Counted from the first letter of the stretch, positions 2,971 through 55,784 are shown. The stretch is DNA of 64,000 bases from Bacteroidales bacterium (GCA_041737295.1 JBGSSA010000141.1:397-64396); one strand, 5' to 3'. Made by a program: numbers and translations. The notes: generated from the letters alone by a model not told the origin.

Positions 2971-2990
2971 ATTTGTTGATTTGTTGATTG
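2971..2990. repeat. 8-mer tandem repeat (ATTTGTTG) x2.5
   Basis: Direct reading: atttgttg atttgttg attg. Confidence 0.9.
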
Positions 2991-2993
2991 TTT

Positions 2994-3056
2994 AGGCTGA
3001 AGGTTGAAGGCTGAAGGCTGAAGGCTGTAGGATGAAGGCTGTAGGATGAAGGTTTT
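2994..3056. repeat. 7-mer tandem repeat (AGGCTGA and variants AGGTTGA/AGGCTGT/AGGATGA) x9
   Basis: Direct reading shows nine contiguous heptamers. Confidence 0.95.
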
Positions 3057-3084
3057 TAGGGAGTCTTCTCCAGAAGAGGAACTG

Positions 3085-3140
3085 ACTGCAAGACTGCAAA
3101 ACTGCATAACTGCAAAACTGCAAAACTGCAAAACTTTCTC
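3085..3140. repeat. 8-mer tandem repeat (ACTGCAAA) x6, ending in the junction unit ACTTTCTC
   Basis: Direct reading: actgcaag actgcaaa actgcata actgcaaa x3 actttctc. Confidence 0.95.
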
Positions 3141-3171
3141 ACTCGTCCCTCGTCACTCGTCCCTCGTCACT
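3141..3171. repeat. 14-mer (two alternating heptamers, ACTCGTC/CCTCGTC) x2.2; minus strand reads GTGACGA/GGGACGA
   Basis: Direct reading. The repeat overlaps the last 6 codons and the stop of the histidine kinase gene. Confidence 0.9.
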
Positions 3172-4934
3172 TCTTTCGACAGGGTAAACAGAAATTCCAG
3201 TCCGCCCCCAACCCGGTTCCTTACAGAAATCTCCCCCTTGTGAAACTGAACGGCATTTTTTACAATAGCAAGTCCGAGGCCGGTGCCTCCGCTTTTACGG
3301 TCACGTCCTTTATCTACCCTGTAGAACCGTTCAAACAGCCGGGGCAGGTCACTGGCAGGCACACCGATACCTGTATCGGAAAATGAAAAGTAATAAAATT
3401 CCTTATCCTCAAGGTATTGATCGACCCTGATCGTAAGGTCATTCCCTCCATGACGTATGGCATTATCAAAAAGATTCCTGAAAATGGAATACAACAATAC
3501 CGGATTCCCGTTGATGGGCAAAAATTCCGGAAGGGCAAGTTCAAGGGATATATTTTTCTCCTTAAGCTGCAATTCAAGCTCAACGGAAATATCGCGTATG
3601 AGCTCATTGATATCGGCCTTTTCAACCAGGTAAAGGGTTGAAGCCTCTTCTATTTTTGTAAGCAGTGAGATATCATTGATAAGGTCCGCCAACCGGCTCG
3701 ACTGCAAATAGGCGCGTTGAAGGAAATCTGCTGTCTTTGCCTTATCGATATTGCCCTGCAGAATGGTTTCAAGAAATCCTTTTATCGAACTGACCGGGGT
3801 CTTAAGTTCATGGGCAATGTTTTCCGTGAGCTGTTGTTTCAGTATTTTGCGCTTTGCCGGTTTGGTAATATCGTTGATTGAAATTTCAAATGTCCGGTCA
3901 AGAAAAACTACGCTTTTCACCGAGAAAAACTTACCATTCCGGCTAATCACAATTTCATATGTAGGCAATGAACCAGCCTGGTTTGCCGGGTCAAACTTCA
4001 GATTTTTATCTACAAAATTTACGAGGGAAGCAAAATCTTCGATCCTGAAAAATTCTTCCCCGGAGATAACCCGTTTATCGCTGATCTGGTTAAGAAAACC
4101 GATAAAGTGGGCATTGCTTGTAATGATAAGTTTATCGGGTGAGAAAATGGCAATCCCTTCGTCAAGCAAATTCAGATGCCGGATCAGTTTGGCCTTTTCA
4201 GCAAGTAGTTCTTCCGTGGTTTTGTTTAACCGCTTATAAATATCGATTATGTCCTGCCCGATAACCCCAAGCTCATTACCCGGAAAATTCATTTCCTTGT
4301 CAATAGGCTCATTGGCCAATGCCTTCTTCGTGAATTGCCGCAAGGTCCGGATTGATTTGCCGAATTTATCGTTGATAAGGATGATTGAAAACGAAGTAAT
4401 GAAGAAGATCAACAGGATAAACAGGATAAAAACCCGGTCGGGCTGAATAAATTTTCTAACAGTGAAATCATAGACTTCCGAAACCCTGATGAATACATTG
4501 CTGAATTTACGTGCATAATAATAATACTCAACCTTCGTCGTATTCGATCTCCGGATATCGGTTCCGTAAATGCCGCCAATTGCCTGCTGCACCTCCGGCC
4601 TTTGGAAGTGATTCTCAATGCCGGAGGGATCCTTTACCCATGAATCATACAGTACCTTCCCGTCCCCGGCGATGAGGGTAATGCGCAGCGACTTTTTTGA
4701 AATGAGAGAATTCAGGGTATCCATCCGGGCAAAGTTCCCGGAAGCAATCATATTGTAGCGCCTGGTATAATTGTTTATGAGCACTGTATAGTTGTCGAGC
4801 TCCTTATTAAGTGCGTCAATACGGAATTTCTTCTCATGACGGAATTCCGAAACCAGCAATACTGTCGTGAAGAGCAATAAAAACGATACAATATAGAAAA
4901 GCCACTTCCTGCTGTAAGAGAATAATAAATTCAT
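3153..4934 (-). CDS. Sensor histidine kinase, PhoR-like by context
   Basis: H-box ENIAHELKTPVSSIKGF, and N/G boxes FRNLFDNAIRHG, DTGIGV, GGTGLGLAIV. N-terminal TM segments are present. ATG 4934 is preferred over TTG 4961. The gene is paired with an OmpR/PhoB-type regulator next to the pst operon. Confidence 0.8.
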   Translation of the reverse strand: MNLLFSYSRKWLFYIVSFLLLFTTVLLVSEFRHEKKFRIDALNKELDNYTVLINNYTRRYNMIASGNFARMDTLNSLISKKSLRITLIAGDGKVLYDSWVKDPSGIENHFQRPEVQQAIGGIYGTDIRRSNTTKVEYYYYARKFSNVFIRVSEVYDFTVRKFIQPDRVFILFILLIFFITSFSIILINDKFGKSIRTLRQFTKKALANEPIDKEMNFPGNELGVIGQDIIDIYKRLNKTTEELLAEKAKLIRHLNLLDEGIAIFSPDKLIITSNAHFIGFLNQISDKRVISGEEFFRIEDFASLVNFVDKNLKFDPANQAGSLPTYEIVISRNGKFFSVKSVVFLDRTFEISINDITKPAKRKILKQQLTENIAHELKTPVSSIKGFLETILQGNIDKAKTADFLQRAYLQSSRLADLINDISLLTKIEEASTLYLVEKADINELIRDISVELELQLKEKNISLELALPEFLPINGNPVLLYSIFRNLFDNAIRHGGNDLTIRVDQYLEDKEFYYFSFSDTGIGVPASDLPRLFERFYRVDKGRDRKSGGTGLGLAIVKNAVQFHKGEISVRNRVGGGLEFLFTLSKEVTRDE

Positions 4935-4942
4935 ATGTTCAG

Positions 4943-5638
4943 TTAATCCATTTCGAAGCAATATCCATATCCTTTGCGGGTAACCAGGAATTTCCCATAG
5001 TCTCCCAGCTTTTTCCGAAGACGGGTTACATGCACATCCACGGTCCTCTCTGTAACGGAAACATCCTTCCAGATAAAATCAAGGATCTGATCCCGGTCGA
5101 AAATTCTGCCCGGATTTTTGAGCAACATATATAGTAATTGAAATTCAATGGGGGTAAGGTCTTCCCGCTGACCGTCAATGGTGAGCCGTTTTTTTTCCAG
5201 GTCAAGCGATATGCCCTCAATCCGGATCGCATCCTCCGGATTCTCATGCTCTGATTTGCTTTCAGCCCTTCGGGCAACAGCTTTTACCCGGGCAATGATC
5301 TCCTTCACTGAAAAAGGCTTCGTGATAAAATCATCCGCCCCAAGAGAAAACCCTGTAAGCTTGTCATTTTCGGAGTTTTTAGCTGTGATGAAAATGATGG
5401 GGGTGGTGAGTTTTTTCCGTTTCCGGATCTCATCGGCCAGTTTGTATCCCGACATGCCTTTCATCATTACGTCAAGCAGGAAAAGCTGGTATCTTTCAAT
5501 TTTACGTGTCAGCGCCTCTTCCGCTGAATTTACCGTATCTGCAATAAATCCTTCCGACTCGAGATTGAATTTCAGGATCTCGCATATGTCCTCCTCATCA
5601 TCCACTATAAGAATACGGTACTTTTTGAGGTCTGTCAT
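4943..5638 (-). CDS. OmpR/PhoB-family response regulator, PhoB-like by context
   Basis: Receiver domain (ILIVDDEEDI, LFLLDVMM) plus a winged-helix domain (ERTVDVHVTRLRKKL). Divergent from the porin-pstSCAB-phoU block. Confidence 0.85.
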   Translation of the reverse strand: MTDLKKYRILIVDDEEDICEILKFNLESEGFIADTVNSAEEALTRKIERYQLFLLDVMMKGMSGYKLADEIRKRKKLTTPIIFITAKNSENDKLTGFSLGADDFITKPFSVKEIIARVKAVARRAESKSEHENPEDAIRIEGISLDLEKKRLTIDGQREDLTPIEFQLLYMLLKNPGRIFDRDQILDFIWKDVSVTERTVDVHVTRLRKKLGDYGKFLVTRKGYGYCFEMD

Positions 5639-5676
5639 GATCCTGTATAATAATTAACAAAAATACAGCTGTCGCA

Positions 5677-5790
5677 TTACAGCTATATTACAAATTTGTA
5701 ACAATATTATTACAATATGTTATGCATTTTTTACAATTTTTTGTAGCTACTTTGTAACATGATCTTAACTTTATTGTAATAAATGTGTAA
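5677..5790. promoter_or_regulatory. Candidate Pho-box-like arrays of 5-nt motifs phased at 11 bp
   Basis: + strand TTACA/TAACA starts at 5677, 5688, 5699 and 5710 (then 5731). + strand TGTAG/TGTAA starts at 5742, 5753, (5764 weak), 5775 and 5786. A perfect 14-bp palindrome TTACAAATTTGTAA sits at 5688..5701. Confidence 0.5.
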
Positions 5791-5815
5791 TAATCAATCC
5801 TCAAATTTGTACCTG

Positions 5816-7051
5816 ATGAAATCATCAAAATTATTCTGCTCACGGATGAGAAAAATGCTATTTACCGCCTGCGTAATCGTACCCTCATTTAAGGCATTTG
5901 CCCAACATCCTTCAGATACCCTTAATGAACAACTTTCCACAATAGATGGCAGGCTCAATTCGCTGGATGAACGGGTTGCGTTAACTGAAAATGACCTTGG
6001 CAAACTCACCAAAATAAAGGTTTCAGGGTATATCCAGTCCCAATTTGAAAATTACCAGGACGGCCTTTTAAAGCCGAATGATGCTGAAAATACATTTTAT
6101 ATAAGGCGTGCAAGGGTAAAATTCACCTACGAAGCTACGGACGGCTTGAAATTTGTATTGCAGCCTGATTTCAGCACTGGAAATCTTTCCCTGAAAGATG
6201 CCTATGCTGTGGTTTCCCTTCCCAAACTCCCTTCTCTCTCGTTATGGGCGGGCCAGTTCAACCGCCTCAATTATGAGGTTGAATATTCCTCTTCGCAGCG
6301 TGAAGTGATGGAAAGATCAAGAGTTATCCGCACCATTTATCCCGGTGAACGGGAGATAGGTGCCAAACTGGAATTCCACCCGGTTACCGTGCCGTTGAAA
6401 TTACAGGTTGCGGTTCTTAACGGAAATTTTACCGGCAGCCAGCCAAAAGATGCGGACACCAAAAAAGACCTCATGGCCCGTGCCACATGGTCGGCACAAA
6501 TACCTTCTGCAGGAATAGGAATTGATTTTGGAGCCCATGCCTATTATGGGGGTCTCATGGCTAAAAACAAGTATATCCTGAATTATGAAAATGTATTAGA
6601 TAGTTCCGCCACCAATACCGGATCTTATATGGATAAAAAATGGGCCGGAGCTGAAGTGCAGGTCTATTTTGATTTGTTGGGCGGGTTGGCACTGAAAGGT
6701 GAATACCTGGCAGGAAGTAATGCATTCAACGGGGATTCAAAAACAACCCCGAGCAGGATGAAAAAATTCTCCGGATACTATGCCTACCTGATCAAGAATA
6801 TTGGGTTGAAAAACCAATTTGTAACCCGGTATGACTATTTCGATCCAAACACTTCTGTATCTGGCGATGCCGCTCTTTCAGATGTCTATTATAAAACCTG
6901 GGTATTTGCCTGGCAATATTACCTGAATGATAACATCCGACTTTCGGCTCAATATGAAATGCCCAAAAACGAGATTAATAATAACAGTGTTGTATATAAC
7001 TCAGATGTTGCTGATAATGTGTTTACTGTCAGAATTCAAGCCAAATTCTGA
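5816..7051 (+). CDS. Phosphate-selective porin O/P family outer-membrane protein
   Basis: Signal peptide MRKMLFTACVIVPSFKAFAQ, an N-terminal coiled segment, then KVSGYIQSQFE and a C-terminal aromatic residue (AKF). Possible starts are 5783, 5816 or 5846 (the 5846 ATG fits the signal peptide best). First gene of the pst block. Confidence 0.75.
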   Translation: MKSSKLFCSRMRKMLFTACVIVPSFKAFAQHPSDTLNEQLSTIDGRLNSLDERVALTENDLGKLTKIKVSGYIQSQFENYQDGLLKPNDAENTFYIRRARVKFTYEATDGLKFVLQPDFSTGNLSLKDAYAVVSLPKLPSLSLWAGQFNRLNYEVEYSSSQREVMERSRVIRTIYPGEREIGAKLEFHPVTVPLKLQVAVLNGNFTGSQPKDADTKKDLMARATWSAQIPSAGIGIDFGAHAYYGGLMAKNKYILNYENVLDSSATNTGSYMDKKWAGAEVQVYFDLLGGLALKGEYLAGSNAFNGDSKTTPSRMKKFSGYYAYLIKNIGLKNQFVTRYDYFDPNTSVSGDAALSDVYYKTWVFAWQYYLNDNIRLSAQYEMPKNEINNNSVVYNSDVADNVFTVRIQAKF

Positions 7052-7054
7052 AAC

Positions 7055-7085
7055 AGGGACTAGGGACTAGGGACTAGGGACAAGG
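7055..7085. repeat. 7-mer tandem repeat (AGGGACT x3, AGGGACA, AGG)
   Basis: Direct reading. It starts 4 nt after the porin stop. Confidence 0.9.
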
Positions 7086-7155
7086 AAGAAGAATACGATA
7101 AATGATGGTAGAAACGAAATTTTAATAAGAAGATCAAAACGTAAAATAAAACAAA

Positions 7156-7989: not shown

Positions 7990-8033
7990 TTTCCCTAAGA
8001 AGGTTTTCCGGTTTGAAAAATAAAAATATCAAT

Positions 8034-9191: not shown

Positions 9192-9197
9192 AAGACC

Positions 9198-10097
9198 ATG
9201 GCACTTACCCGAAATACTAAAGATACAATTATCAAGAGCCTGACCGGCATGAGTGTAATACTTATACTTTTTATTACAATCTCCATGCTTTCAGTTATAT
9301 TCGTCGGGGGATGGAAGAGTCTGACCTGGGAATTTCTGAGCGAGTTTCCTAAGGAAGGAATGACAAAAGGAGGCATTTTTCCGGCTATTATCGGCACTGC
9401 ACTGATGACACTTATCATGACCATAGCGGCAGTTCCTTTCGGGGCCATCACTGCTGTGTACCTGGCCGAATATGCCTCCGAAAAATCTGTGGTGGCTAAA
9501 TCCATCCGGTTTGCCGTTAAAACGCTGGCTGTTGTTCCCTCCATTATTTTCGGCCTGTTCGGCCTTGGTTTCTTTATCAAATTCGTTGGGGTGAATATGG
9601 ACAATTTTCTTTTTAACGGCGATCTTCACTGGGGACAGCCCAATATTCTCTGGGCCAGTCTGACAATGGCCCTGCTAACATTGCCCATTGTAATTGTCTC
9701 TGTGGAAGAATCCATTCATACGGTTCCCCGTGAAGTCAGGGAGGCCAGCCTGGCCCTGGGGGCCACAAAATGGCAAACCATTAAAAAGGTCGTGTTACCC
9801 GGTTCCATTACGGGTATCCTGACAGGTACAATCCTTGCCATCAGCCGCGGTGCAGGCGAGGTTGCCCCGATTCTGTTTACCGGAGCCGCGTATTACCTGG
9901 CAGAACTGCCCCAGGCGCCTACATCGCAGTTTATGTCGCTTGGTTACCATATATATATCATGTCAACACAATCCACTAACGTGGATGAAACATTGCCAAT
10001 ACAGTTTGCCACAACCCTGGTTTTGTTGCTCCTTACCTTTTCACTCAGTATGATTGCTGTAACGTTGCGTTACCGGATCAGAAAAAAAGCTCGCTAA
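9198..10097 (+). CDS. pstA: Phosphate ABC transporter permease PstA
   Basis: 299 aa with [21 protein letters not shown], the PstA signature. Confidence 0.9.
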
Positions 10098-10101
10098 GTG
10101 T

Positions 10102-10860: not shown

Positions 10861-10920
10861 TAGCGATTTTTCTTGTTGTGTTAAGAGACTAAAAAATTTA
10901 ATTTAAAATACGAAATTGTT

Positions 10921-11580: not shown

Positions 11581-11582
11581 TT

Positions 11583-11662
11583 ATTTGTTGATTTGTTGAT
11601 TTGTTGATTGGCTTACGCGGCGGAATACTTATTGATTTGTTGATTTGTTGATTTGTTGATTG
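11583..11662. repeat. Two blocks of (ATTTGTTG)x3 separated by 24 bp
   Basis: Blocks at 11583..11610 and 11631..11662. The first starts 2 nt after the phoU stop. Confidence 0.92.
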
Positions 11663-11684
11663 GAGATTGAAGTCGGAAACGTTA

Positions 11685-11783
11685 AATCGAATGCAATGAG
11701 ATTTCTTCTCTGCGCCCTCAATAAAGCCTGGTAAACAAACCTTTAGCGTTCTTCGCGAAAACTCAGCGGCCTCTGCGTTAAAA
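11685..11783 (+). repeat. Dispersed ~100-nt core element, copy A
   Basis: AATCGAATGCAATGAGATTTCT...AAAGCCTGGTAAACAAA..CTTTAGCGTTCTTCGCGAAAACTC..CTCTGCGTTAAA. About 95% identical to copy C by hand alignment. Confidence 0.85.
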
Positions 11784-11843
11784 CGTTTGAGCGGATCTTT
11801 CCCGGCACTCGCAGATTAACAACACCCATTTCTGGAAAAGTTC

Positions 11844-12030
11844 AATCGAATGCAATGAGATTTCTCAGCGACCTACTTAAAGCCTGGTAAACAAAACTTT
11901 AGCGTTCCCTGCGAAAACTCTGCGACCTCTGCGTTTAAATTTTCCGGATATCTTATAATTATCCTGATCGATTTTTCCTGCACCCTGCAGAAGTAAAACT
12001 GCAAAACTGCAAAACTGCAGTGAACTGCAG
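11844..12030 (+). repeat. Core element copy B, plus CCGGATATCTTATAATTATCC hairpin segment, plus (AACTGCAA/G)x4
   Basis: Roughly 160 of 178 positions match the reverse complement of 45739..45913 by hand alignment. Confidence 0.85.
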
Positions 12031-13072: not shown

Positions 13073-16000
13073 TTACAGTCTCTTCTTTACTTCCGTGGTT
13101 TCATATCCCTCAATGATATCACCAGCCTGTATATCATTATAATTCTGGATATTAAGCCCGCACTCCTGTCCCACATAGGCTTCCTTCACGTCGTCCTTGT
13201 ATCGTTTCAGGGTTGCCAGGTGGCCGGCATGAATGACAATGCCTTCGCGGATGATCCTGATCTTGGTGTCGCGCTTGATCTTTCCTTCCTTAACCATACA
13301 GCCTGCAATGGTACCAACCTTCGTGATCTTAAAGGCTTCCATTACTTCAAGGGTGGCTACGATCTCTTCCCTGATCTCAGGTGACAACATGCCTTCCATG
13401 GCGGATTTGATCTCATTGATGGCATCGTATATGATCGAATACAACCGTATATCGATTTCTTCACGTTCCGCAATGCGCCTTGCCTGAACCGAAGGACGTA
13501 CCTGGAATCCGATTACAATGGCGTTGGATGCAGCAGCCAGGAGAATATCGCTTTCCGATATTTGTCCGACCGCTTTGTGAATTACATTAACCTGTATCTC
13601 TTCATTTGAAAGCTTGATCAGCGAATCGGACAGTGCTTCGATGGATCCGTCCACGTCACCCTTCACAATCACATTGAGTTCCTTGAAGTTTCCAATGGCG
13701 ATACGGCGGCCGATCTCATCGAGAGTGATGTGTTTCTGCGTACGCAGGCCCTGTTCACGCAACAGTTGCTCGCGTTTTGTAGCAATTTCCTTGGCTTCCT
13801 TCTCTGTAGAATATACATTGAATTTGTCACCGGCCTGGGGAGCGCCATTCAATCCGAGTACCAATACGGGATCAGACGGGCCGGCGGCCTCTATCTTCTT
13901 ACCACGTTCGTTGTACATGGCCTTTACCTTTCCAAAGTTGTGACCGGCCAGCACAATATCTCCAACCTTTAATGTACCGGACTGAACCAGCACTGTGGCC
14001 ACAAATCCCCTTCCCTTGTCCAGGGACGATTCAATGATTGTCCCATTGGCCAGCTTGTCGGGATTGGCTTTCAGATTCAGCAATTCAGCCTCGAGGTATA
14101 CTTTTTCGAGCAGGTCATATATATTCAATCCTGTTTTGGCGGAAATCTCCTGCGACTGGTATTTACCACCCCAGTCTTCCACCAGGATGTTCATTTGAGC
14201 AAGGGATTCCTTAATTTTTTCAGGATTTGCAGTAGGCTTGTCAATTTTATTGATGGCAAATACCATCGGAACACCGGCAGCCTGTGCATGGTTAATGGCT
14301 TCAATGGTCTGGGGCATGATGCCGTCATCGGCAGCGACCACGATTATGGCCACATCGGTGATCTGGGCACCCCGTGCACGCATGGCAGTAAACGCCTCAT
14401 GTCCGGGAGTATCCAGGAATGTAATCTGCCGGCCGTCTTTTAATATCACACCATACGCACCGATATGCTGGGTAATTCCACCCGCCTCACCGGCAATAAC
14501 ATTAGCCGAACGGATGTAATCAAGCAATTTTGTCTTTCCATGGTCAACATGGCCCATAACCGTAACAATCGGGGGCCTTGGTGCCAGGTCCTCAGGATCC
14601 TCAACTTCTTCTTCCTGCTCATCCTCAGCATCCACCGTAACAAACTCAACCTTATAGGCGAATTCTTCAGCCACGAGCACAAGGGCTTCAGCGTCAAGAC
14701 GCTGGTTGATGGATACAAAAAGGCCAAGGCTCATACAGGCTGCAATAACCTCGTTAACCGGAACGTCCATCAGCGTGGCCAATTCATTCACAGTAACGAA
14801 CTCGGTTACACGGAGGATATTCTTTTCGCTTTCCTTCTTTTCTTCTTCCTGTTGCATCCGCTGGCTGACAATATCACGCTTTTCACGGCGGTATTTGGCA
14901 CCCTTGGTCCTGCCTTTGGTACCTATCCTGGCGAATGTATCCTTTATCTGTTTGTCTACATCTTCCTCACTGATCTCAAAACGGTAGCCCTTTCTCTTCT
15001 TCTTTTTCTTTTTATCCTTTATCACTTCAAGATCAGCGGTTCGTGGTGGTTTTTCCACACTGACCCGCTGTGTATCTTTCTTGATCCTTTTCCTCTTCTT
15101 CTTTTCTGCACTGTCATCCTTATCGGCCCCGGCCGGTTCAAGACTCATTTTACCCACTACGGTAGGACCAGCCAGTTTATCAGCTTTTGCCTTGATCACT
15201 TCAGGAAGCCTGCCGCCAGTTCTGGGCTTTACATCCTGCGGGTCATTTGCCTGGGTTCTGTCTGCCGTTTCGCGTTGCTGTGTGGATGTACGGGTCCTTC
15301 TTTCGACTTCAAGCTGTTCCCTGGTCTTTTTGGGAGGACGCGTCCGCTGGTTCATGGCATCCAGGTCGATTTTCCCTACTACCTTAACTTCCACATCCTT
15401 GATTTCCTGCTTATAGAAATTTTCTTCCGGCTTAGCAGGTATGGTTTCCTGCGACGGCACCGGAATAACTTCTTCCTCAGGTTCAGGAATAATATCGACG
15501 GGTGGTTCTGCGACCGGTACAACGGGTTCTTCCTTAACCACCTCTGGCTCTGCAATTTTTTCCGCTACCACGGGAGTGGGAGGAGGAGGTGCAGGGACTG
15601 GAGCAGGGGGAGGAGGAGGAGGAGGCAGGACTTCTTCCTTTTTGGGAGGTGGCGGTGGCGGCGGGGTAACCTTTTTAGGCGGATTCAGATCGATCTTCCC
15701 GATAACGTTAATCCGGATGGTTTCTTTCTCTGCCGGGTGTTCAACTTCCGGTTCATGGTGAACTGCAGAGGCACGCAAATCTTTAACAAGCAATTCTTCC
15801 TCGAATTCCGTTACCTCAGCTTCTTTTTCATGATGCATATCGCCTATCGATATACTTTCAAGCTTCTCACGTTTATTCCGGAGATTGAGTTTCTCCGATT
15901 CCTTTTTCACATTCAGGTCAGAACTAAACTCCTTTAACAGCATATCAACCTGCTCGGAGGTGATCTTCTCATTCGGATTCGAATCGATCTTCACCCCTTT

Positions 16001-25419: not shown

Positions 25420-25463
25420 TGACGGTGTCCCCCGCTGGCGGGGGCAGGGGGTGGATTAGAAGA

Positions 25464-25530
25464 ATTTACGATTTACGATTTACGATTTACGATTTACGAT
25501 TTACGATTTACGATTTACGATTTACGATTG
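25464..25530. repeat. 7-mer tandem repeat (ATTTACG) x9.5
   Basis: Direct reading shows nine perfect contiguous units. Confidence 0.97.
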
Positions 25531-25598
25531 CGCGTAGTCATATTCTTCAAGCGATCGAAGACCTTTGAAGGGTTAAATTAGAAGAGAAAATTGAACAG

Positions 25599-25654
25599 TG
25601 AACTATCAACAATCAACAATCAACTATCAACTATCAACAATCAACTATCAACAA
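25599..25654. repeat. 7-mer tandem repeat (TCAACAA/TCAACTA) x8
   Basis: Direct reading. It ends 10 nt before the sufC ATG. Confidence 0.95.
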
Positions 25655-25664
25655 TAATGATATC

Positions 25665-29076: not shown

Positions 29077-29514
29077 GTGAAAAACATGCAGGATATACAG
29101 CAGGAGATAGTGGATGAATTCGAAGTATACGATGACTGGATGGATAAATACAATTACCTGATCGAATTGAGCCGTAACCTTCCATTGATCGATCCAAAAC
29201 TGAAGATCAATGAAAATATAATAAACGGCTGCCAGTCCAAAGTATGGCTAAGCGCCGAATACAAGGAAGGCCTGGTTTGGTTCAAAGCTGACAGCGATGC
29301 TATAATAACCAAGGGTATTATTGCCCTGCTTATCCGCGTATTATCCGGAAGGTCCCCTGAAGAACTCATGCAAAGCGAATTGTGGTTTATTGACAAAATC
29401 GGCCTTCGTCAGAATTTATCGCCTACGCGATCGAATGGCCTGCTGTCAATGGTAAAACAAATGAAATTATACGCGTTGGCGTACCACACGAAGAAAGTGA
29501 CGAGTGACGAGTGA
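29077..29514 (+). CDS. sufE: Cysteine desulfuration protein SufE
   Basis: GCQSKVWL active-site motif. The start is GTG 29077 or ATG 29086. The last 5 codons plus the stop lie in a GTGACGA repeat. Confidence 0.88.
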   Translation: MKNMQDIQQEIVDEFEVYDDWMDKYNYLIELSRNLPLIDPKLKINENIINGCQSKVWLSAEYKEGLVWFKADSDAIITKGIIALLIRVLSGRSPEELMQSELWFIDKIGLRQNLSPTRSNGLLSMVKQMKLYALAYHTKKVTSDE

Positions 29515-29531
29515 CAAGGAGGAAGTGACCT
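29497..29531. repeat. 7-mer tandem repeat (GTGACGA x2, GTGACAA, GGAGGAA, GTGACCT)
   Basis: Direct reading. It supplies the sufE stop codon (GTGACGAGTGA). Confidence 0.85.
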
Positions 29532-29545
29532 GTTTAAAAGATAAT

Positions 29546-29633
29546 AAATGTAGAGGCGACTCTCAGAGTCGCCTTAACCGTAACTAAATAAATGCAGAGA
29601 CGACTCTCAGAGTCGCCTCAACCGTATCTAAAT
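29546..29633. repeat. 44-bp tandem duplication x2, each carrying a hairpin (GGCGACTC-TCA-GAGTCGCC)
   Basis: Units at 29546..29589 and 29590..29633 differ at a few positions. Hairpins are at 29555..29573 and 29599..29617. Confidence 0.9.
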
Positions 29634-31115: not shown

Positions 31116-31199
31116 CTGGATGGGTATTAAAGTTTATACAAAGATACATCACTTGATATAAAATGATATTATCTTTGACGCACGTTCATTATTTTATTG

Positions 31200-31304
31200 C
31201 TTATCCAGAAAGGTGGAGGGTATGGCCCTGTGAAACCTTAGCAACCCTTTCAGATTTTGAAAGAAGGTGCTAACTCCTGCTCCGGCTTGCCGGGGATAGA
31301 TAAG
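31200..31304 (+). promoter_or_regulatory. SAM-I (S-box) riboswitch
   Basis: CUUAUCCAGAAAGGUGGAGGGUAUGGCCCUGUGAAACCUUAGCAACC...AAGGUGCUAACUCCUGC...GAUAAG. It matches the conserved S-box core and P1 (CUUAUC/GAUAAG), and lies upstream of hom. Confidence 0.9.
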
Positions 31305-31316
31305 TCGGACATCGTG

Positions 31317-31401: not shown

Positions 31402-32589
31402 ATGGAAAAAACTATCAAGCTTGGCATTTTCGGATTTGGCTGTGTGGGCCAGGGGTTGTATAATGTGTTACACCATACCCGGGGTATTAATGCCGAGATT
31501 AAAAAAATCTGCATCAAACACCCCGATAAGAAAAGGCCAATTGATGCCTGTTTTTTTACAACTGACCGTAATGAAATCCTGAATGATCCTGAAATTGATG
31601 TTGTTGTGGAACTCATTGATGAGGTGGATGCCGCATTTGAAATAGTCTCTGCAGCGCTTAAGAAAAGGAAAGCGGTAGTCTCAGCCAATAAAAAAATGAT
31701 CGCCGAAAATTTCGAAACCCTGCTTAACCTCCAGCGTGAATACAATACATCCTTCCTGTATGAAGCCTCCTGTTGTGCCAGTATTCCCGTAATACGAAAC
31801 CTTGAAGAATATTATGATAATGATTTGCTTACCAGCGTGGAAGGCATTCTTAACGGATCAACAAATTATATTCTCACAAACATTTTCCAGCATAACCAGC
31901 CATTTGATGCGGCGCTTAAAAGAGCACAGGAACTTGGTTTTGCAGAGAGTGACCCCAGCCTTGACATCAAAGCCCTCGATCCCAAGTATAAACTGCTGAT
32001 CATCCTGGTCCATGCATTCGGCATCATCCTCAAACCTGATGATATTTTCAACTATGGCATCATGAATCTGAAGGATACAGATATCCGGTATGCCCGCGAA
32101 AAAAATGCAAGCATCAAACTTATTGCCAAATGCAGGAAGACGGATAATAAGGTGATTGCCTATTGTATGCCGCGGTTTGTGGCACATGAAGATACACTCA
32201 ACAAGGTGACCTATGAATATAACGGTCTGCTTGTGGAAGGTGCATTTTCCGAGCACCAGTTTTTTATGGGCAAAGGTGCCGGCGGAAATCCTACCGGTTC
32301 AGCCGTGCTTTCCGACATATCTGCATTGACCTATAATTACAGGTATGAATATAAAAAGATAAGCCAGCATTTGAATTATGGTTTCTCGCAGGATATAAAC
32401 CTTGAAATCTTTGTCAGTTACACCGGAAACACAAAACCTGAATTATCCGATTTTAACACTATTTCTGTAAAACACGAATCGCCTGATTTCAATTATGTGA
32501 TCGGAAACATTAACCTGGAAACGCTCAGGCAATGCGCATGGATACATGAAGAAAACATCAGTATTGTGCTAACCGAAAATAACTTATGA
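31402..32589 (+). CDS. hom: Homoserine dehydrogenase
   Basis: KLGIFGFGCVGQG NAD-binding fold and ANKKMIA. The start is trimmed to ATG 31402, because the ORF-track N-terminus runs through the riboswitch terminator. Confidence 0.85.
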   Translation: MEKTIKLGIFGFGCVGQGLYNVLHHTRGINAEIKKICIKHPDKKRPIDACFFTTDRNEILNDPEIDVVVELIDEVDAAFEIVSAALKKRKAVVSANKKMIAENFETLLNLQREYNTSFLYEASCCASIPVIRNLEEYYDNDLLTSVEGILNGSTNYILTNIFQHNQPFDAALKRAQELGFAESDPSLDIKALDPKYKLLIILVHAFGIILKPDDIFNYGIMNLKDTDIRYAREKNASIKLIAKCRKTDNKVIAYCMPRFVAHEDTLNKVTYEYNGLLVEGAFSEHQFFMGKGAGGNPTGSAVLSDISALTYNYRYEYKKISQHLNYGFSQDINLEIFVSYTGNTKPELSDFNTISVKHESPDFNYVIGNINLETLRQCAWIHEENISIVLTENNL

Positions 32590-32731: not shown

Positions 32732-33025
32732 GTGGGAAAGAAAAGAATAATCAAATCTTATGAGCAACTGTCGGAAGAAATGGTTGAACGGTTAAAAGCG
32801 AAGTACCCCGACGGATATGAAGACAGAACCATCACCTTCACTAACCCCAGGGGTGAGATCGAAGTTGCTATTCCCTTCGAAACGGAAGAAATTTATTATC
32901 TTATCAAACTTCCCCGTACGAACGCTGCGGAAGAAGAGGAAGAAGTTGAATCATCTTCTTTTGATGAATTCGACAATTTCGAAAGCCTTGAAATAGGAGA
33001 TGATGTCTCCGAAGACGAAGAGTGA
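32732..33025 (+). CDS. Hypothetical small protein with an acidic C-terminal tail
   Basis: 97-aa ORF with a GTG start. The N-terminal 60 aa looks globular, followed by a D/E-rich tail. No family recognised. Confidence 0.5.
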   Translation: MGKKRIIKSYEQLSEEMVERLKAKYPDGYEDRTITFTNPRGEIEVAIPFETEEIYYLIKLPRTNAAEEEEEVESSSFDEFDNFESLEIGDDVSEDEE

Positions 33026-33050
33026 TCAATAATCGGTAATCTTCATTGAG

Positions 33051-33209
33051 ATTGGATACTGGATATTGGATACTGGATACTCGATATACCAGCATCCAGT
33101 ATCCAGCATCCAGTATCCAGCATCCAGTATCCAGTATCCAGCATCCAGCATCAAGCATCCAGCATCAAGCATCCAGTATCCAGCATCCAGCATCCAGTAT
33201 CCGACTACC
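33051..33209. repeat. Inverted heptamer arrays: (AYTGGAT)x5, then the complementary (AGYATCC)x17
   Basis: Units tiled by hand across 33051..33085 and 33091..33209. The last degenerate unit contains the ung stop codon. Confidence 0.95.
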
Positions 33210-44912: not shown

Positions 44913-45673
44913 TGATCACTGTGAATAACCTGCATAAATCCTTCAACGGCGTACCGGTTCTCAAGGGAATATCCGTCAGTTTCGAGAAGGGCAAAACCAA
45001 CCTTATCATCGGCCGGAGCGGATCGGGAAAAACCGTCCTCGTCAAATGCCTCGTCGGACTTCATGAGGTAGACCAGGGAACTATCTTTTATGACAAACGG
45101 AATTTTGTGGAAATGGACTTTGAATCCCGTAAAGAGATCCGCCGTGAAATCGGCATGCTTTTCCAGGGAGGCGCCCTCTTTGATTCACTGACGGTTGAAG
45201 AGAATGTGATGTTCCCACTCAATATGTTTACCGAAATGAGTTTGCGTGAAAAACTCGAACATACCAACTTATGCCTGAAACGGGTGGATCTTGTGAATGT
45301 GAACAAACTCTATCCCGGGGAATTAAGCGGGGGAATGAAGAAAAGGGTGGCCATTGCAAGGGCGATCGTGGAAAATCCCAAGTACCTCTTTTGTGATGAA
45401 CCCAACTCCGGCCTCGATCCTAAAACCGCACTCGTTATCGATGATCTTATCAGTGAAATTACCCATGAATATGACATCACCACCGTTATCAATACCCATG
45501 ATATGAACTCGGTGATGGAAATCGGTGAAAAAGTGATTTTCATTCATGATGGACATAAGTCGTGGGAGGGCACACGGGAGGAAATCCTCGACAGCGATGA
45601 TGAGAACCTCAACGACTTTGTTTTCGCATCCAATTTTGCTAAAAAAATCAAGTCCCTTACCGGTAACCAGTAG
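44912..45673 (+). CDS. mlaF: MlaF-family ABC transporter ATP-binding protein
   Basis: Walker A GRSGSGKT, signature LSGGMKKR, Walker B LFCDEP. The start ATG overlaps the mlaE stop (TGATG). The 89 upstream codons of ORF 44645 overlap mlaE and are rejected. Confidence 0.88.
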   Translation: MITVNNLHKSFNGVPVLKGISVSFEKGKTNLIIGRSGSGKTVLVKCLVGLHEVDQGTIFYDKRNFVEMDFESRKEIRREIGMLFQGGALFDSLTVEENVMFPLNMFTEMSLREKLEHTNLCLKRVDLVNVNKLYPGELSGGMKKRVAIARAIVENPKYLFCDEPNSGLDPKTALVIDDLISEITHEYDITTVINTHDMNSVMEIGEKVIFIHDGHKSWEGTREEILDSDDENLNDFVFASNFAKKIKSLTGNQ

Positions 45674-45687
45674 TCAGTAATCGGTAG

Positions 45688-45714
45688 TAGAGACAAGGCA
45701 ATGCCTTGTCTGTA
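45688..45714. terminator. Hairpin repeat of the TAGAG-stem-loop class after mlaF
   Basis: AGACAAGGC-AAT-GCCTTGTCT (9-bp perfect stem, 45691..45711) with partial extension. It has the same TAGAG 5' flank as the hairpins at 29551 and 29595. Confidence 0.55.
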
Positions 45715-45738: not shown

Positions 45739-45913
45739 CAGTTTTGCAGTTTTGCAGTTTCCTTCAGCAGGGTATAGGAAAATCGATCAGGATATTTATA
45801 AGATATCCGGAAAATTTAAACGCAGTGGTCGCAGAGTTTTCGCGAAGAACGCTAAAGTTTTGTTTACCAGGCTTTATTGAGGTCGCAGAGAAGAAATCTC
45901 ATTGCATTCGATT
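45739..45913 (-). repeat. Core element copy C, plus hairpin segment, plus (AACTGCAA)x2.5, in minus orientation
   Basis: Its reverse complement aligns with 11844..12020 over the full length, at about 89% by hand alignment. Confidence 0.85.
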
Positions 45914-45932
45914 TATATTTCCGGAATCAGAT

Positions 45933-46004
45933 CAACCAATCAACCAATCAACCAATCAACAAATCAACAAATCAACAGATCAACAAATCAACAAATCAAC
46001 AAAT
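45933..46004. repeat. 8-mer tandem repeat x9 (CAACCAAT x3, CAACAAAT x2, CAACAGAT, CAACAAAT x3)
   Basis: Direct reading. The last T is the first base of the complement of the DUF4834 stop codon. Confidence 0.95.
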
Positions 46005-46302: not shown

Positions 46303-46337
46303 AGTTGAAAGTTGATGGTTGATGGTCGATAGTTTTA
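46303..46337. repeat. 7-mer tandem repeat (AGTTGAA, AGTTGAT, GGTTGAT, GGTCGAT, AGTTTTA)
   Basis: Direct reading. It is the complement of the TCAACNA family. Confidence 0.85.
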
Positions 46338-46351: not shown

Positions 46352-46431
46352 GATTGCATGACTGCACGACTGCGCGACTGCCGAACTGCCGAACTGCTAA
46401 ACTGCTAAACTGCAAAACTGCAAAACTTTCT
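46352..46431. repeat. 8-mer tandem repeat x10 with stepwise unit drift, from GATTGCAT to AACTTTCT
   Basis: gattgcat gactgcac gactgcgc gactgccg aactgccg aactgcta x2 aactgcaa x2 aactttct. Confidence 0.95.
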
Positions 46432-46459
46432 TGTCCCTTGTCCCTTGTCCCTCGTCCCT
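46432..46459. repeat. 7-mer tandem repeat (TGTCCCT x3, CGTCCCT)
   Basis: Direct reading, followed by T8. The module order matches 3085..3171. Confidence 0.92.
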
Positions 46460-46508
46460 TTTTTTTACTACCTTTACGGGCGTTAAAAAATAAATCCCAA
46501 AAAAACAC

Positions 46509-48175: not shown

Positions 48176-48198
48176 AAAAAGCTTAAAATAACCTGAAT

Positions 48199-54100: not shown

Positions 54101-55626
54101 ACGACAACAGGATCAGCCTCACCGCAGATACGAATTATACAGGATTGCTGGTCGTTATAGAAGGCCAGGTGGTAAAGGCAAGTCCCCTGCTCTTTATCGG
54201 TGAGAATTCAATCCGTTTTCTGACGGGACTGAAAAATATTTCGGTTACCTATTCCCTTACAGGGGGAACCAAACTGGGTGGTTTTATGGCCACCCCGAAT
54301 ATTATCGGATTCAATACAGGAGACCAGTATAACGGGGCACCCGGACTTCCTTTCCTGTTGGGCTTACAGGATGACAAATTTGACAGGTATGCGGCAGACC
54401 AGGGATGGCTAACCACCAACCAGGCATTTAATGACCCGTATACAATGTCAAGAACCGAAAACTTCAATGTTAAAGGAACTTTTGAACCGTTCAAGGGATT
54501 CCGTATTGAAATATCCGGATTGCGTACCTATACCGATTTCCGGAGCGAGTATTACCATTACAGCGATACGACGGCCAACAACAACGGGTTTTCATTCGGT
54601 AACCAGACTGTCAACGGCGGATATTCAATATCCATTATCAGCATTGGTACCGGTTTTGAGAAACTGAAAAGCAGCAATGGTTTCAACTCGGTGTATTTTG
54701 AACGGTTTAAAACCTACCGTCAGATCATCTCCCACCGGCTCTATAACGACAGGCTAAATTCAAACGCGTCCAATTACCAGGGTTCCATACAACAAACTAT
54801 TGAACCGGGATATACCGACGGGTATGGATCCACATCGCCCGATGTAATCATACCTGCATTCCTGGCAGCCTATACGAACAAAGATCCGATGGCGGTAACA
54901 CTTGAAACATTTCCGGGTTTCAAAAATATAATGCCTAACTGGAGACTAACCTTTGATGGCCTGAGCAAACTCGATTTCGTAAAACGGTATATCAAAACCA
55001 TTGTTATTAACCATTCCTATAAATCCACCTATAACATCAATTCGTTCTCGACGAACTTATTGTATGAAGAAGATCCCATGGACGGATTTGGCTATGTAAG
55101 GGATTTTCAGGATAATTTCGTTCCGGAATTGCAGCTCAATACAGTTTCTATCAGGGAAGACATGAATCCGTTATTTGGTATTGACGCAACCTGGGTGAAT
55201 AGCCTGCTTACCCGTCTGGAATTCCGCAAATCACGGATCCTTGCCCTGAGCCTGGCCAATAACCAGCTCACGGAAAGCCGCAATGATGAAATGATCATCG
55301 GTGCAGGATATCGGTTTAAGGAGGTGCCCCTTAAAATCGGGCAAAAAGCTTATGAAAGCGATCTCAATCTGAAATTCGACCTGTCTGTGAGGGACAATAA
55401 AACCATCATCAGGTATCTTGCCCAGACTGAAGCAGATGAGGTGGACCAGATAACATCCGGGGACAGGATCTTTAAAATCCTGTTTACAGCAGATTACCTG
55501 CTTTCACCCCGATTCAACCTGCAATTCTTTTTCGACCGCACCCTTAACAAACCCCATACTTCCAGATCGTTCCTCAGGGTGGATACAAACATAGGCTTCA
55601 GCCTTCGTTTCACGCTTTCGCAATAA
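48199..55626 (+). CDS. sprA: T9SS outer-membrane translocon SprA (Sov)
   Basis: 2475-aa ORF in the conserved ruvA-sprA-gcvH neighbourhood. Huge beta-barrel-type sequence ending in a C-terminal aromatic-rich strand. The start is uncertain (TTG 48199 or ATG 48271). Confidence 0.9.
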   Translation: MVAAREKHIILQPLLKILLRSAFGMLISGTVMPVFSQGIQSPSDTTKLAYPFRDDTNFPFSTSGVTSPLYLNNPSNVVQTIVYDPVTNQYIFSEKVGRLDYRPPTSMSLKEYLQYDRQTSVQNYWQQKSRENLAPSKSPLLGNIKMGDSFDKIFGTDAISIVPQGSAELIFGYNMSRIDNPALSEKNRKNGSFLFKEKIQMNVTGSIGDKMQLGINYNTEASFDFENKTKLEYTGKEDEIIKKIEAGNVTFSLPGTLITGSQSLFGLKTDLQFGKLFVSSVVSHQRGQSQQIEVKGGAQVSKFEVDAADYDANKHFFLSHFFRNNYNSWLESLPYVNSGVRIQQIEVWITNKSSSTTDTRNILALQDLGEGYGPQGQPDFGGQKEFIGPVSTFNAAADNNTNKLYSNMVEQYAGIRTFNQIAALLAPLESSYNFYGGRDFEKIENSRKLSQTEYSLNEQLGYISLNSALRADEVLAVAYVYTYQGKTYRVGELSSDGVSAPKTLVVKLLKGTSLTPKLKTWDLMMKNVYAIGAYQVSNSDFILDVLYRKDETGVPVNYISEPLADSAFNRKILLRVLKMDNLDSRNEPNPDGRFDFIDGTTINPRDGRVFFTQVEPFGKDMKYTIMGGDTSASNTVQEKIARKYIFEELYDSTQTKARQISKKNKFFLAGEYESSSSSEIQLNAMNVPQGSVKVSSGGIALVEGQDYTVDYTLGRVKILNQGLIESGAPLSVSLENNALFNLQTKTLLGTHMDYKFSDNFNLGGTVMHLTERPLTQKVNVGDEPISNTIWGLNTSYRTDSRMLTKWIDALPLIETKETSSISVDAEFAQMIPGQAKIIGEGGVAYIDDFEGTETTVELKTIQSWFLSSTPRKFRNSGLLNNLQYGYNRSKLAWYTIDPLFTRNESRTPKNITEEEQNDPYVREVLETEIYKNRESGTGFQNTLMIMNLAYFPEERGPYNFDPSLSDDYKLPFPRTRWGGIMREIQTSDFETSNIEYIEFWLMDPFLKDSLSQGGDLFFNLGEISEDVLKDSRKSFENGLPTSDSIARIDTNSVWGRVPTAQSIVNSFDSDPNNRELQDVGMDGMNDEQELAKYASYVNLKTPGSPAWSRINEDPSADNFLYFLAPEYNDTAGVITRYKDYNNTQGNSPTTEQSGGDFAASTTLPNTEDINRDNTLNETDAYYEYHVPLSPDELNTDNSYITDIVDGKVNPETNLPVKWYQFRIPIDDYAGKYGNIEDFKSIRFMRMYLTNFEKPVILRFAELHLVRSEWRKYDNTLASGSPSVTDQYDKGGFEISSVNIEENALKTPVNYILPPGIDRVVDPSQPQVAQLNEQSIVFKVHDLADGDARAAYKTLGMDLRQYKKLKMFVHAEQPVGQVLNDYEITAFIRLGADQTDNYYEYEVPLALTPAGQYGDGQRSVVWPDENAIEVILDELVDLKVERDDAIDGQPDLYDITKIYKKRVGKNLIKIKGTPNLSNVRNVVVGVRNAGDLDNEYQNDGLPKSAEIWFNELRLTDFNNKGGWAANARTQLRLADLGILSVAGSTSKPGFGSIEQKVNARNKEETNQIDVSTNLELGKLLPEKAKVSVPLYVAVSKTTVTPEYSPAEPDRLMKDVLDQTATSSERKAAKELSQDVIKRNSVNFTNVRVNKDLEKFKIISPSNFSITAGYSETQAHSYEVERNNSIKYGLSLNYIYNTRTKSITPFRKSKGLKSPYLRFIKDFNFSPLPSRLSFQTAFDRFYNEMKLRNVYADRDVLIDSTVSKDFLWNRRYELNWDLTKSLKFDLSVNNHARIDEAAGAYDLFRQGNKSEWSKSVWQSIKKGGRPVNYNHSLNATYNVPLNKFPILSWTSLSLRYNSTYDWSEGPIFEGSRTLGNSIANSNTMQASTTFNLAGLYNKTKYLKALESKYSGTQKSKTEKKMKTITFTKENVFLRPNTPRNISHKLKTQELIVKVTDESGAEIPAKVQILDDNRISLTADTNYTGLLVVIEGQVVKASPLLFIGENSIRFLTGLKNISVTYSLTGGTKLGGFMATPNIIGFNTGDQYNGAPGLPFLLGLQDDKFDRYAADQGWLTTNQAFNDPYTMSRTENFNVKGTFEPFKGFRIEISGLRTYTDFRSEYYHYSDTTANNNGFSFGNQTVNGGYSISIISIGTGFEKLKSSNGFNSVYFERFKTYRQIISHRLYNDRLNSNASNYQGSIQQTIEPGYTDGYGSTSPDVIIPAFLAAYTNKDPMAVTLETFPGFKNIMPNWRLTFDGLSKLDFVKRYIKTIVINHSYKSTYNINSFSTNLLYEEDPMDGFGYVRDFQDNFVPELQLNTVSIREDMNPLFGIDATWVNSLLTRLEFRKSRILALSLANNQLTESRNDEMIIGAGYRFKEVPLKIGQKAYESDLNLKFDLSVRDNKTIIRYLAQTEADEVDQITSGDRIFKILFTADYLLSPRFNLQFFFDRTLNKPHTSRSFLRVDTNIGFSLRFTLSQ

Positions 55627-55733
55627 ATGCCCGATAAAATCGCCGGAAGCAAACTTTCAAATCAGGAATATTGCTTACTTTTATGCGGAATTTGTTTTTT
55701 GCATAATGATACTTATATCAATCATATATCGTC

Positions 55734-55784
55734 AATCGTAAATCAAATATATCAGCAATCGTAAATCGTAAATCGTAAATTTTT
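55734..55784. repeat. 7-mer repeat (AATCGTA): three perfect units at 55757..55777 plus degenerate flanking units
   Basis: Direct reading. It is the reverse complement of the ATTTACG family at 25464, and ends about 7 nt before the gcvH ATG. Confidence 0.8.

Follow-up and report, generated by a model that had tools for sequence, protein, structure and literature searches.

Short tandemly repeated repetitive (STRR) sequences and long simple sequence repeats (LSSR) are tandem 7-nt intergenic units found in many copies per genome, units whose length is not a multiple of three being excluded from genes. Canonical STRR units of heterocystous cyanobacteria include CCCCAGT, TTGGTCA and CAACAGT. To our knowledge, polarity toward gene ends is not part of the STRR/LSSR definition. 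Here we analyse tandem arrays of 7- and 8-nt units, and the rule that orients them toward the flanking genes, in a 64,000-nt stretch of DNA from a Bacteroidales bacterium (GCA_041737295.1 JBGSSA010000141.1:397-64396), referred to below, at its full length, as the window.

Oriented intergenic tandem heptamers have been described by Rehm et al. (2015, PLoS One, PMC4692102) in Xanthomonas (GGGAATC) and in Nostoc/Anabaena (GGGGAYT): within 50 bp downstream of a stop codon the G-rich strand is the coding one, and within 50 bp upstream of a start codon it is the non-coding one, irrespective of how the open reading frame is oriented. Convergent inverted pairs are frequent there, no replication-strand preference is observed, the neighbours are housekeeping genes, length and sequence vary extensively between close relatives, and no function was assigned (PMC4692102). 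MacGregor (2015, Front Microbiol, PMC4679880) reported TAACTGA direct repeats in Beggiatoaceae, cyanobacteria and five Bacteroidetes, mostly oriented "forward" and located shortly upstream of start codons devoid of a Shine-Dalgarno (SD) sequence. In Flexibacter litoralis, 12 of the 14 TAACTGA sets face a start and one set, directly behind a stop, has the opposite orientation; other heptamers share gaps with TAACTGA in Gramella, Aequorivita and Elizabethkingia. These arrays are absent from the orthologous gaps of relatives, and contigs break at the repeats (PMC4679880). Heptamers are also, according to the LSSR work of Mrazek as cited in the same paper, the commonest long simple sequence repeats (SSR).

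The window arrays belong to this known class. Polarity, convergent inverted pairs, strand neutrality, housekeeping neighbours and variability are common to them and to the Xanthomonas and Nostoc heptamers, and one family (GGGACNA, often in four units) is their direct counterpart. However, at least six unit families coexist here, most of them without a G3 tract (ATTTGTTG, TTTGCAGT, ATTTACG, CCTTCAG, GGATRCT and CGGTATT), octamers represent half of the families, composites recur and the host is an SD-less Bacteroidales. With the TAACTGA repeats, the window shares start-proximal arrays in a single orientation without SD, here ending 9, 10 and 17 nt before the sufC, gcvH and panC starts. The TAACTGA unit itself has no match in the window (two units, up to 1 mismatch), and MacGregor treated this single unit, trailer polarity, composites and a G-first rule for inverted pairs not being reported there (PMC4679880). 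An earlier reading of the window from its sequence (hereafter the original prediction) had presented the polar arrangement as new; the same polarity had been published for Xanthomonas and Nostoc (PMC4692102), and oriented heptamers for five Bacteroidetes (PMC4679880). As for LSSR, the units are repeated head to tail beyond chance within the 5-11 nt range, and periods that are not multiples of three are confined to non-coding DNA; unlike STRR, the host is an uncultured Bacteroidales, as placed by SufB and PdxA relatives, and no window unit matches the canonical STRR units.

What is new is that (i) polarity is independent of unit family and length, G-tract and non-G-tract units, heptamers and octamers alike, (ii) it is local, within ~40 nt of gene ends, (iii) inverted pairs follow a G-first rule, none of 18 having the C-rich arm first, and (iv) arrays show evidence of module copying and are changed completely between genomes whose flanking proteins are 94-97% identical. 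Taken together, these properties argue for an orientation-dependent tolerance at transcript ends rather than for a sequence-specific function. We are inclined to regard the arrays as hypervariable simple-sequence satellites of the LSSR/STRR-like heptamer class, which would be generated by slippage and module copying and whose orientation would be left by selection at transcript ends.

Polarity of the arrays in the window

Tandem Repeats Finder (TRF), together with direct inspection of every gap at the sequence level, identified 19 tandem arrays of period 7 or 8 spread over 10 intergenic gaps. They represent 18% of the intergenic DNA of the window, and the median gap length is 201 nt with arrays versus 88.5 nt without. 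Apart from the last few codons of some genes, the arrays lie outside open reading frames (ORFs). The units were assigned to family A (ATTTGTTG/CAACAAAT type), B (TTTGCAGT/ACTGCNNA type), C (GGGACNA/GTGACGA type) or D (ATTTACG/AATCGTA type); the window contains 4 occurrences of a three-unit A/B-type pattern, versus 0.00 expected from shuffles. We call trailer reading the G-rich sense that follows a stop, and leader reading the C-rich sense that precedes a start.

The sign of the GC skew follows a simple rule in 18 of the 19 arrays, the sole tie being ATTTACG: read on the + strand, G exceeds C in an array on the left side of a gap, and C exceeds G in one on the right side. Because composites recur, the arrays cannot be treated as independent, and when each composite was counted as a single module the rule applied to 12 of 12 (two-sided p = 5e-4). 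The polarity claimed in the original prediction is thus confirmed, in a slightly different wording: the direction of its T/G-rich versus A/C-rich distinction was right, but G versus C separates the trailer and leader classes best, as CTTGTCC is C/T-rich. The rule can be stated as "gap left end G-rich, right end C-rich" on either strand and for any gene direction. It is a dyad-symmetric property of the gap and therefore does not by itself prove a transcription-linked role.

The divergent DUF4834-pdxA gap had been considered ambiguous. It fits the rule, with CATCAAC reading toward DUF4834, and ACTGCAAA and CTTGTCC reading toward pdxA; in a relative (L176) the same gap contains a complete inverted composite, which settles the case in favour of the rule. 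The proposal that arrays place stops in all three frames stood for ATTTGTTG, GTGACGA and AGGGACT and failed for TTTGCAGT, GGGACRA, ATTTACG and GGATRCT (3 of 7 trailer unit types). Orientation does not follow the replication strand, a check that the original prediction had asked for: on the + strand 9 arrays have G>C and 9 have C>G, orientation flips within single gaps, and the GC skew of the window is flat. These data rule out replication-strand orientation in the window.

The arrays, with the strand of the reading concerned, are as follows.

2969..2989, - strand: CAACAAAT x2.6, family A in leader reading, 17 nt upstream of the panC start (TRF, sequence).
2994..3052, - strand: CCTTCAG x8.4, C-rich in the panC sense, with a G-C skew of +0.36 on the + strand (TRF).
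3085..3135, - strand: TTTGCAGT x6.4, family B in trailer reading, which follows the stop of the histidine kinase and belongs to the C-B composite.
3139..3171, - strand: GTGACGA/GGGACGA x4, family C, encoding the last kinase codons and supplying the TGA stop (3153-3155).
7055..7085, + strand: AGGGACT x4.4, family C with four GGG tracts, 3 nt past the porin stop.
11583..11661, + strand: two ATTTGTTG arrays, x3.4 and x3.8, family A in trailer reading, located downstream of the phoU stop and forming the left end of the A/150-bp element/B composite.
11995..12019, - strand: TTTGCAGT x3.1, family B in trailer reading, 26 nt past the queG stop; right end of the A/150-bp element/B composite.
25464..25529, + strand: ATTTACG x9.4, family D in trailer reading, 44 nt past the sufB stop.
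25594..25655, + strand: AACAATC/AACTATC x8, family A-like in leader reading and devoid of G, its end lying 9 nt short of the sufC start.
29496..29515, + strand: GTGACGA x2.9, family C, supplying the sufE stop codon; orthologous arrays are present in two relatives (L063 and L170).
33022..33044, + strand: degenerate TAATCGG-type heptamers, a remnant array at the stop of a 97-aa ORF (sequence).
33053..33202, unstranded: inverted pair, TGGATAC x4.9 / CCAGYAT x16.3, located between convergent genes and giving a long hairpin whichever strand is read.
45661..45690, + strand: degenerate CGGTAAY/CAGTAGT heptamers containing the mlaF stop, the remnant of a GGTATTC array of relatives.
45739..45760, + strand: TTTGCAGT x2.8, family B in trailer reading, 65 nt past the mlaF stop.
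45931..46004, - strand: TTGTTGAT/TTGGTTGA x9.2, family A in trailer reading, adjoining the DUF4834 stop.
46311..46334, - strand: CATCAAC x3.4, family A in leader reading, 22 nt upstream of the DUF4834 start.
46355..46427, + strand: ACTGCNNA x9, family B in leader reading and belonging to the B'-C' composite, 81 nt upstream of the pdxA start.
46430..46460, + strand: CTTGTCC x4.4, family C in leader reading, located 48 nt upstream of the pdxA start and containing four CCC tracts.
55720..55780, + strand: AATCGTA x8, imperfect, family D in leader reading, ending 10 nt before the gcvH start.

All arrays listed in the original prediction were recovered by TRF at their places, all 19 tabulated intergenic short-unit arrays have the unit length of 7 or 8 that it announced, and its flanking genes were correctly identified, as judged by Pfam. 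TRF added AGGCTGA x8.4 at 2994-3052 and the TGGATAC x4.9 / CCAGYAT x16.3 pair at 33053-33202. The flanking genes encode PanC, a histidine kinase, a porin O/P (phosphate porin), PhoU, QueG, SufB, SufC and SufE, as well as an MlaF-type ABC ATPase, DUF4834, PdxA, SprA and GcvH. The neighbours are unrelated housekeeping genes (suf, panC, pdxA, gcvH, pst/phoU) rather than genes for surface proteins or antigens.

Polarity across Bacteroidota

The polarity extends to other Bacteroidota. The survey covered ~1.4 Mb, in which TRF yielded 119 de-duplicated intergenic arrays. It drew on a SufB-anchored scan of genome contigs, in which relatives among the matches listed reached at most 83% identity and which served as the phylum-wide survey, and on a histidine-kinase-anchored scan of metagenomes, which gave one close relative (L160). 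The phage-type contigs considered below were chosen solely for containing an A/B-type array. Intergenic arrays across the Bacteroidota loci have a period of 7 (85 arrays) or 8 (31), any other period being represented by at most 8 arrays each; genic repeats mostly have a period of 6 (22) or 9 (9), with 7 repeats of period 7.

Among arrays nearest a stop, 54 have G>C and 18 G<C in the sense of the gene; among those nearest a start, the counts are 12 and 21 (Fisher p = 2e-4). Flanks devoid of arrays show no bias (399/437 and 337/365), which rules out background composition as the cause in the survey, although the leaders of the window are themselves poor in G (23 vs 9). Trailer arrays contain 10.5% C and 24.6% G in sense, and leader arrays 24% C and 15% G. 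The bias after stops decays with distance: the G>C to G<C ratio is 28:3 for arrays abutting or overlapping the stop, 16:4 at 4-40 nt and 10:11 beyond 40 nt. Within 40 nt it amounts to 45:7, and remains 33:5 when the sufB-sufC gap is excluded and 27:4 when only fully downstream arrays are counted. A bias of this shape, maximal at the gene end and lost past 40 nt, is the expected outcome of a local selective filter. In the phage-type contigs, all 15 GC-skewed arrays within 40 nt of a start have G<C. The type of polarity described by Rehm et al. is thus found in the window (18 of 19), near stops (45:7) and before starts (12:21, and 0:15 in phage contigs).

One contig of Bacteroides sp. MI.10_1 (L099), the SufB of which is 77% identical, carries GATTTAC after a stop and AATCGTA before starts (5586-5901 and 9263-9287). 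The presence of family D units in this genome points to unit sharing or convergence across families.

Leader arrays and the initiation region

Ribosome profiling in Flavobacterium has shown that an open, A-rich initiation region matters in this class, the Bacteroidia, which initiate without SD pairing (PMC6847099). The C-rich orientation of leader arrays fits this mode of initiation. Leader arrays are predicted to fold less in the sense than in the antisense orientation (20 vs 9): the minimum free energy is 0.0 in sense versus -12.6 in antisense for the sufC array (AACWATC x8), and 0.0 versus -8.4 for the CCTTCAG array at 2994..3052. When each array was inverted in place in silico, the predicted accessibility of the -20..+15 region decreased in 37 of 51 cases (p = 0.001); for sufC, the unpaired fraction of the translation initiation region is 0.51 with the native array and 0.26 with the inverted one. 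The suggestion of the original prediction that A/C-rich leaders suit SD-independent initiation is thus supported in silico. Most leader units contain no start codon in leader reading.

Beside a start, the C-rich, G-poor strand alone may be tolerated as sense: it would be unfoldable, would contain few G-containing start codons and would leave the initiation region open. We infer from these predictions that arrays affect translation, and an inverted leader array should reduce translation in Bacteroidia. The TTTG-containing units were also compared by eye with the Bacteroidetes -7 promoter motif TAnnTTTG, and gave no match.

The omega leader of tobacco mosaic virus, which combines ACAAUUAC direct repeats with a poly-CAA tract, is an unstructured enhancer that acts without SD pairing. 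The G-free, CAA-rich leader units CAACAAAT, ATCAACAA and AACWATC presumably resemble omega-type enhancers, which we take as a lead only. Unlike CAA-rich enhancers, the arrays described here are dispensable and variable.

Composites and inverted pairs

Arrays recur as composite modules. The ATTTGTTG / 150-bp element / AAAACTGC composite occurs at 11583-12019 and, reversed, at 45739-46004, and the ACTGCAAA-CTYGTCC composite occurs at 3085-3171 and 46355-46460. The GGGACRA-TTTGCAGT (C-B) composite, with a conserved junction, is found after the kinase stop, reversed before pdxA, and after sufB in relatives. It is present in both orientations within a single gap in L160 (kinase-panC) and in L176 (DUF4834-pdxA). 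In these cases, the C-rich copy precedes a start, and the G-rich copy lies beside a stop or, in L176, antisense to the leader of the diverging gene.

Inverted pairs are more frequent than expected: 18 of 59 adjacent array pairs have reverse-complementary units, versus ~2 expected and a maximum of 8 in 2000 shuffles. The C-rich arm comes first in none of the 18, and 15 have a G-rich left arm and a C-rich right arm. Inverted pairs of the kind described by Rehm et al. are thus present, including the window pair at 33053-33202, with a predicted RNA fold of -57.8 kcal/mol (z = -6.9). Where the arrays of a gap are not complementary, as in sufB-sufC and kinase-panC, folding is no better than that of shuffled sequence (z = +1.15 and +0.34), which rules out the hairpin hypothesis for such arrays in these two gaps. 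Four contigs from IMG/VR with a GC content of ~0.5 (L008, L010, L036 and L043) contain dense inverted octamer pairs, a AATGTGCA-type array being followed by a TGCACATT-type array 13-48 nt apart; the G-rich arm again comes first.

The ~150-bp element is dispersed in four copies, at 11662-11830, 11822-11994, 45761-45930 (reverse strand) and 59040-59200 (degenerate). All lie in convergent gaps, two of which have flanking ATTTGTTG and AAAACTGC arrays. No Rfam family matched the element at E <= 1, and it shows no covariation. Relatives lack it in their orthologous mlaF-DUF4834 gap, which indicates an insertion.

These observations bear on a different origin, in which the arrays are the arms of a palindromic insertion resembling miniature inverted-repeat transposable elements (MITEs) or repetitive extragenic palindromic (REP) sequences, with a G-rich arm, a spacer and a C-rich arm. 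Whichever strand of such a palindrome is read, the G-rich arm comes first; polarity would then be a by-product of this structure, and solitary arrays would represent halves left by decay. The excess of reverse-complementary pairs, none of them C-first, is in line with this proposal, as are the full inverted composites of L160 and L176 and the two copies of the A/150-bp element/B composite, which are in opposite orientations and inserted relative to other genomes. However, the majority of arrays are solitary, many left and right arrays of one gap are non-complementary and fold like shuffles, and the exclusive G-first order across unrelated unit families and phyla is left unaccounted for. Inverted array arms are present, but the L160 and L176 spacers appear unrelated by eye (they were not aligned). 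We therefore consider a palindromic insertion improbable.

REP sequences and bacterial interspersed mosaic elements are intergenic, located after stops or between operon genes, hairpin-forming, dispersed and strain-variable, and consist of single imperfect palindromes. The inverted array pairs and a hairpin of the window resemble them; by contrast, the arrays are tandem direct repeats, and no transposase of the REP-associated RAYT type was seen, no search having been aimed at one. The hairpin concerned is the REP-like, GC-rich CCCCCGCTGGCGGGGG, directly past the sufB stop (25426-25452); a reverse-complement copy occurs in the sufE gap of a relative (L170, ~15470-15500), which indicates that small palindromes also move between gaps.

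A further proposal, which we hold to be quite unlikely, is a modular lexicon of elements of untranslated regions (UTRs), spread between gaps by a putative copy-and-paste mechanism as G-first inverted composites, whose C-rich units would act as SD-independent enhancers and whose G-rich units would act as 3'-end or antisense insulators. If true, the "G-rich outward, C-rich inward" rule, common to Xanthomonas and Nostoc, would be a general and undescribed form of bacterial gene insulation.

Turnover between relatives

The comparison of orthologous gaps proposed in the original prediction was carried out, and close relatives carry different units in the same gap. In the sufB-sufC gap, the window has a GC-rich hairpin, ATTTACG x9.4 and AACWATC x8; relatives at 96-97% SufB identity have GGGACRA x4 followed by TTTTGCAG x4.5, a 94% relative has ATGAATT x4.6, and a further relative (L175) has a gap of 27 nt with no array. 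The mlaF-DUF4834 gap measures 330 nt in the window, against 91-119 nt in relatives at 94% identity and 24-35 nt in those at 87%. The gap orthologous to the remnant at 33022..33044 contains CGGTATT x7.9 in L063. Arrays are thus replaced by unrelated units where the flanking proteins are 94-97% identical, and more distant relatives have no arrays in the array-bearing gaps of the window. The gap following sufB is a hot spot for unrelated 7- and 8-mer units across Bacteroidota (L074, L076, L090, L094, L106, L116, L118, L120, L121 and others); several of these arrays open with the stop codon itself (TAGTAAT, TAAATGA, TAATTAGT and TAATTCA).

Copy number changes by whole units between samples, as in LSSR. 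L176 and L177 are one species from two samples, and their GGTATTC array, which contains the mlaF stop, has 11.6 and 7.6 copies, respectively, a difference of exactly 4 units (28 nt). Such variation, together with the predominance of heptamers among long SSR in bacteria (Mrazek 2007, in the summary given in PMC4679880), would also be expected of a mere slippage by-product oriented by the leading or lagging strand, or of classical phase-variation (contingency) loci. Neither is credible to any appreciable degree: the within-gap flips, the 9:9 split and the flat GC skew refute the strand version in the window, and the neighbours are housekeeping rather than surface or antigen genes. With such neighbours, and arrays that lie outside ORFs save for the last codons, the arrays do not conform to phase-variation contingency loci.

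Turnover also bears on whether the arrays are dedicated UTR modules. According to this proposal, C-rich, CAA-type units would be translation enhancers or landing pads for bS1, and G-rich units 3'-end elements (e.g., G-quadruplexes formed by GGGACNA x4) that would end or insulate transcription or shield the mRNA terminus. Unit families do keep their polarity across gaps and genomes (D in the window and in L099; B and C in at least six gaps), the sufB-sufC gap attracts arrays of unrelated units across Bacteroidota, family C often has exactly four G3 tracts, as Rehm et al. observed for quadruplex-forming heptamers, and the leader accessibility test (37/51) is in agreement with it. However, the arrays are dispensable and are swapped for unrelated units at 94-97% flanking-protein identity, their neighbours are functionally unrelated, one sequence family would need a separate function for each orientation, and no regulatory effect was seen in the transcriptome data of Rehm et al. 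(PMC4692102). Dedicated modules are in our opinion unlikely, albeit the most serious of the alternatives considered here.

The arrays have practical consequences, as they break short-read assemblies and gene callers extend ORFs through stop-free C-rich arrays. L062, a Logan contig, breaks off 36 nt past the stop codon of sufB, and several JGI contigs (L178-L182) start inside arrays upstream of pdxA. In L176 (5415-6602, P0122), the public annotation makes PdxA 395 aa long instead of 350; this annotation artefact of 45 codons arises because the stop-free C-rich leader arrays let the ORF run on.

Trailer arrays and the origin of the orientation

Of the 78 trailer arrays of the survey, 33 abut or contain the stop, and in the window the last codons and stop of the upstream gene are often supplied by the array (kinase, sufE and mlaF). 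Stop-abutting arrays have stops in all three frames in 16 cases in sense versus 5 in antisense. As stop codons contain no C, the G-rich, C-poor strand is the expected sense at the end of a coding sequence. The trailer bias is found in convergent (14:5) and co-directional (33:7) gaps alike.

The explanation that we favour, satellites filtered by selection, would operate as follows. Arrays would arise and change in copy number by replication slippage, and would spread from gap to gap as copies of composite modules, frequently in the form of inverted pairs, which would fold into hairpins; no single array would be needed. Beside a start, only the C-rich strand would be tolerated as sense, and beside a stop the G-rich, C-poor strand would be, arrays that overlap the end of a coding sequence having to supply its stop codon. 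An additional pressure would act on arrays up to ~40 nt downstream of the stop. Selection, rather than an insertion mechanism, would thus set the orientation.

Several results weigh against this explanation. Survey gene calls came from a simple ORF-based caller. The leader bias in GC skew is weak when the anchored Bacteroidota loci are considered alone (5:9 within 40 nt), and the trailer bias is absent from the phage-type contigs (14 G>C and 12 G<C within 40 nt of a stop). For arrays clear of the stop, stop content is similar on the two strands (16 in sense versus 14 in antisense), so that stop-codon content is ruled out as the sole cause of the trailer bias in their case. A requirement for structure just after the stop (RTS, PMC7518266) is likewise ruled out, the in silico inversion of arrays giving 21 versus 20. 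The 16:4 bias at 4-40 nt is not explained by stop content, predicted structure or operon versus convergent gene context. Finally, the recurrence of unit families within one genome and the lack of C-first order in 18 inverted pairs could reflect a copying mechanism with a built-in geometry.

The leader and trailer halves behave differently, and thus probably have different causes. Candidates for the trailer half are (i) Rho loading on the inward-facing C-rich strand, (ii) a quadruplex or an R-loop formed by the outward-facing, G-rich strand and (iii) a by-product of the origin as inverted pairs combined with the leader constraint. With regard to (ii), family C has four G3/C3 tracts at 7055, at 46430, at two sites in L063 and in L176, and two tracts at the kinase stop, in L160 and in L170; the G tract is found in family C (GGGACNA) only, the other families having none.

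Rho prefers C-rich, G-poor, unstructured RNA. An extension of candidate (i) holds that the arrays are Rho-based transcriptional insulators, the inward strand being C-rich, G-poor, unstructured and thus similar to a Rho utilization (rut) site: antisense or read-through polymerases would be terminated, and sense transcription would be rescued by prompt translation. This would be compatible with a dyad-symmetric rule that applies equally in convergent and co-directional gaps, with trailer arrays depleted of C in sense and hence C-rich in antisense, and with window leader arrays of 55-74 nt that lack any G. Yet Rho binding is not known to be linked to a period of 7-8 nt, genes preceded by C-rich leaders should be attenuated as well, and the phage contigs lack the trailer bias; we consider such insulators very unlikely.

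Other features of the window

Downstream of sufE, a 44-bp tandem repeat x2.1 (91% match) is present at 29543-29633, with a hairpin GCGACTCTCAGAGTCGC in each unit. A SAM riboswitch (RF00162, 89 bits) is located at 31198-31306 (+ strand), upstream of a homoserine-dehydrogenase-like gene (31402-32589).

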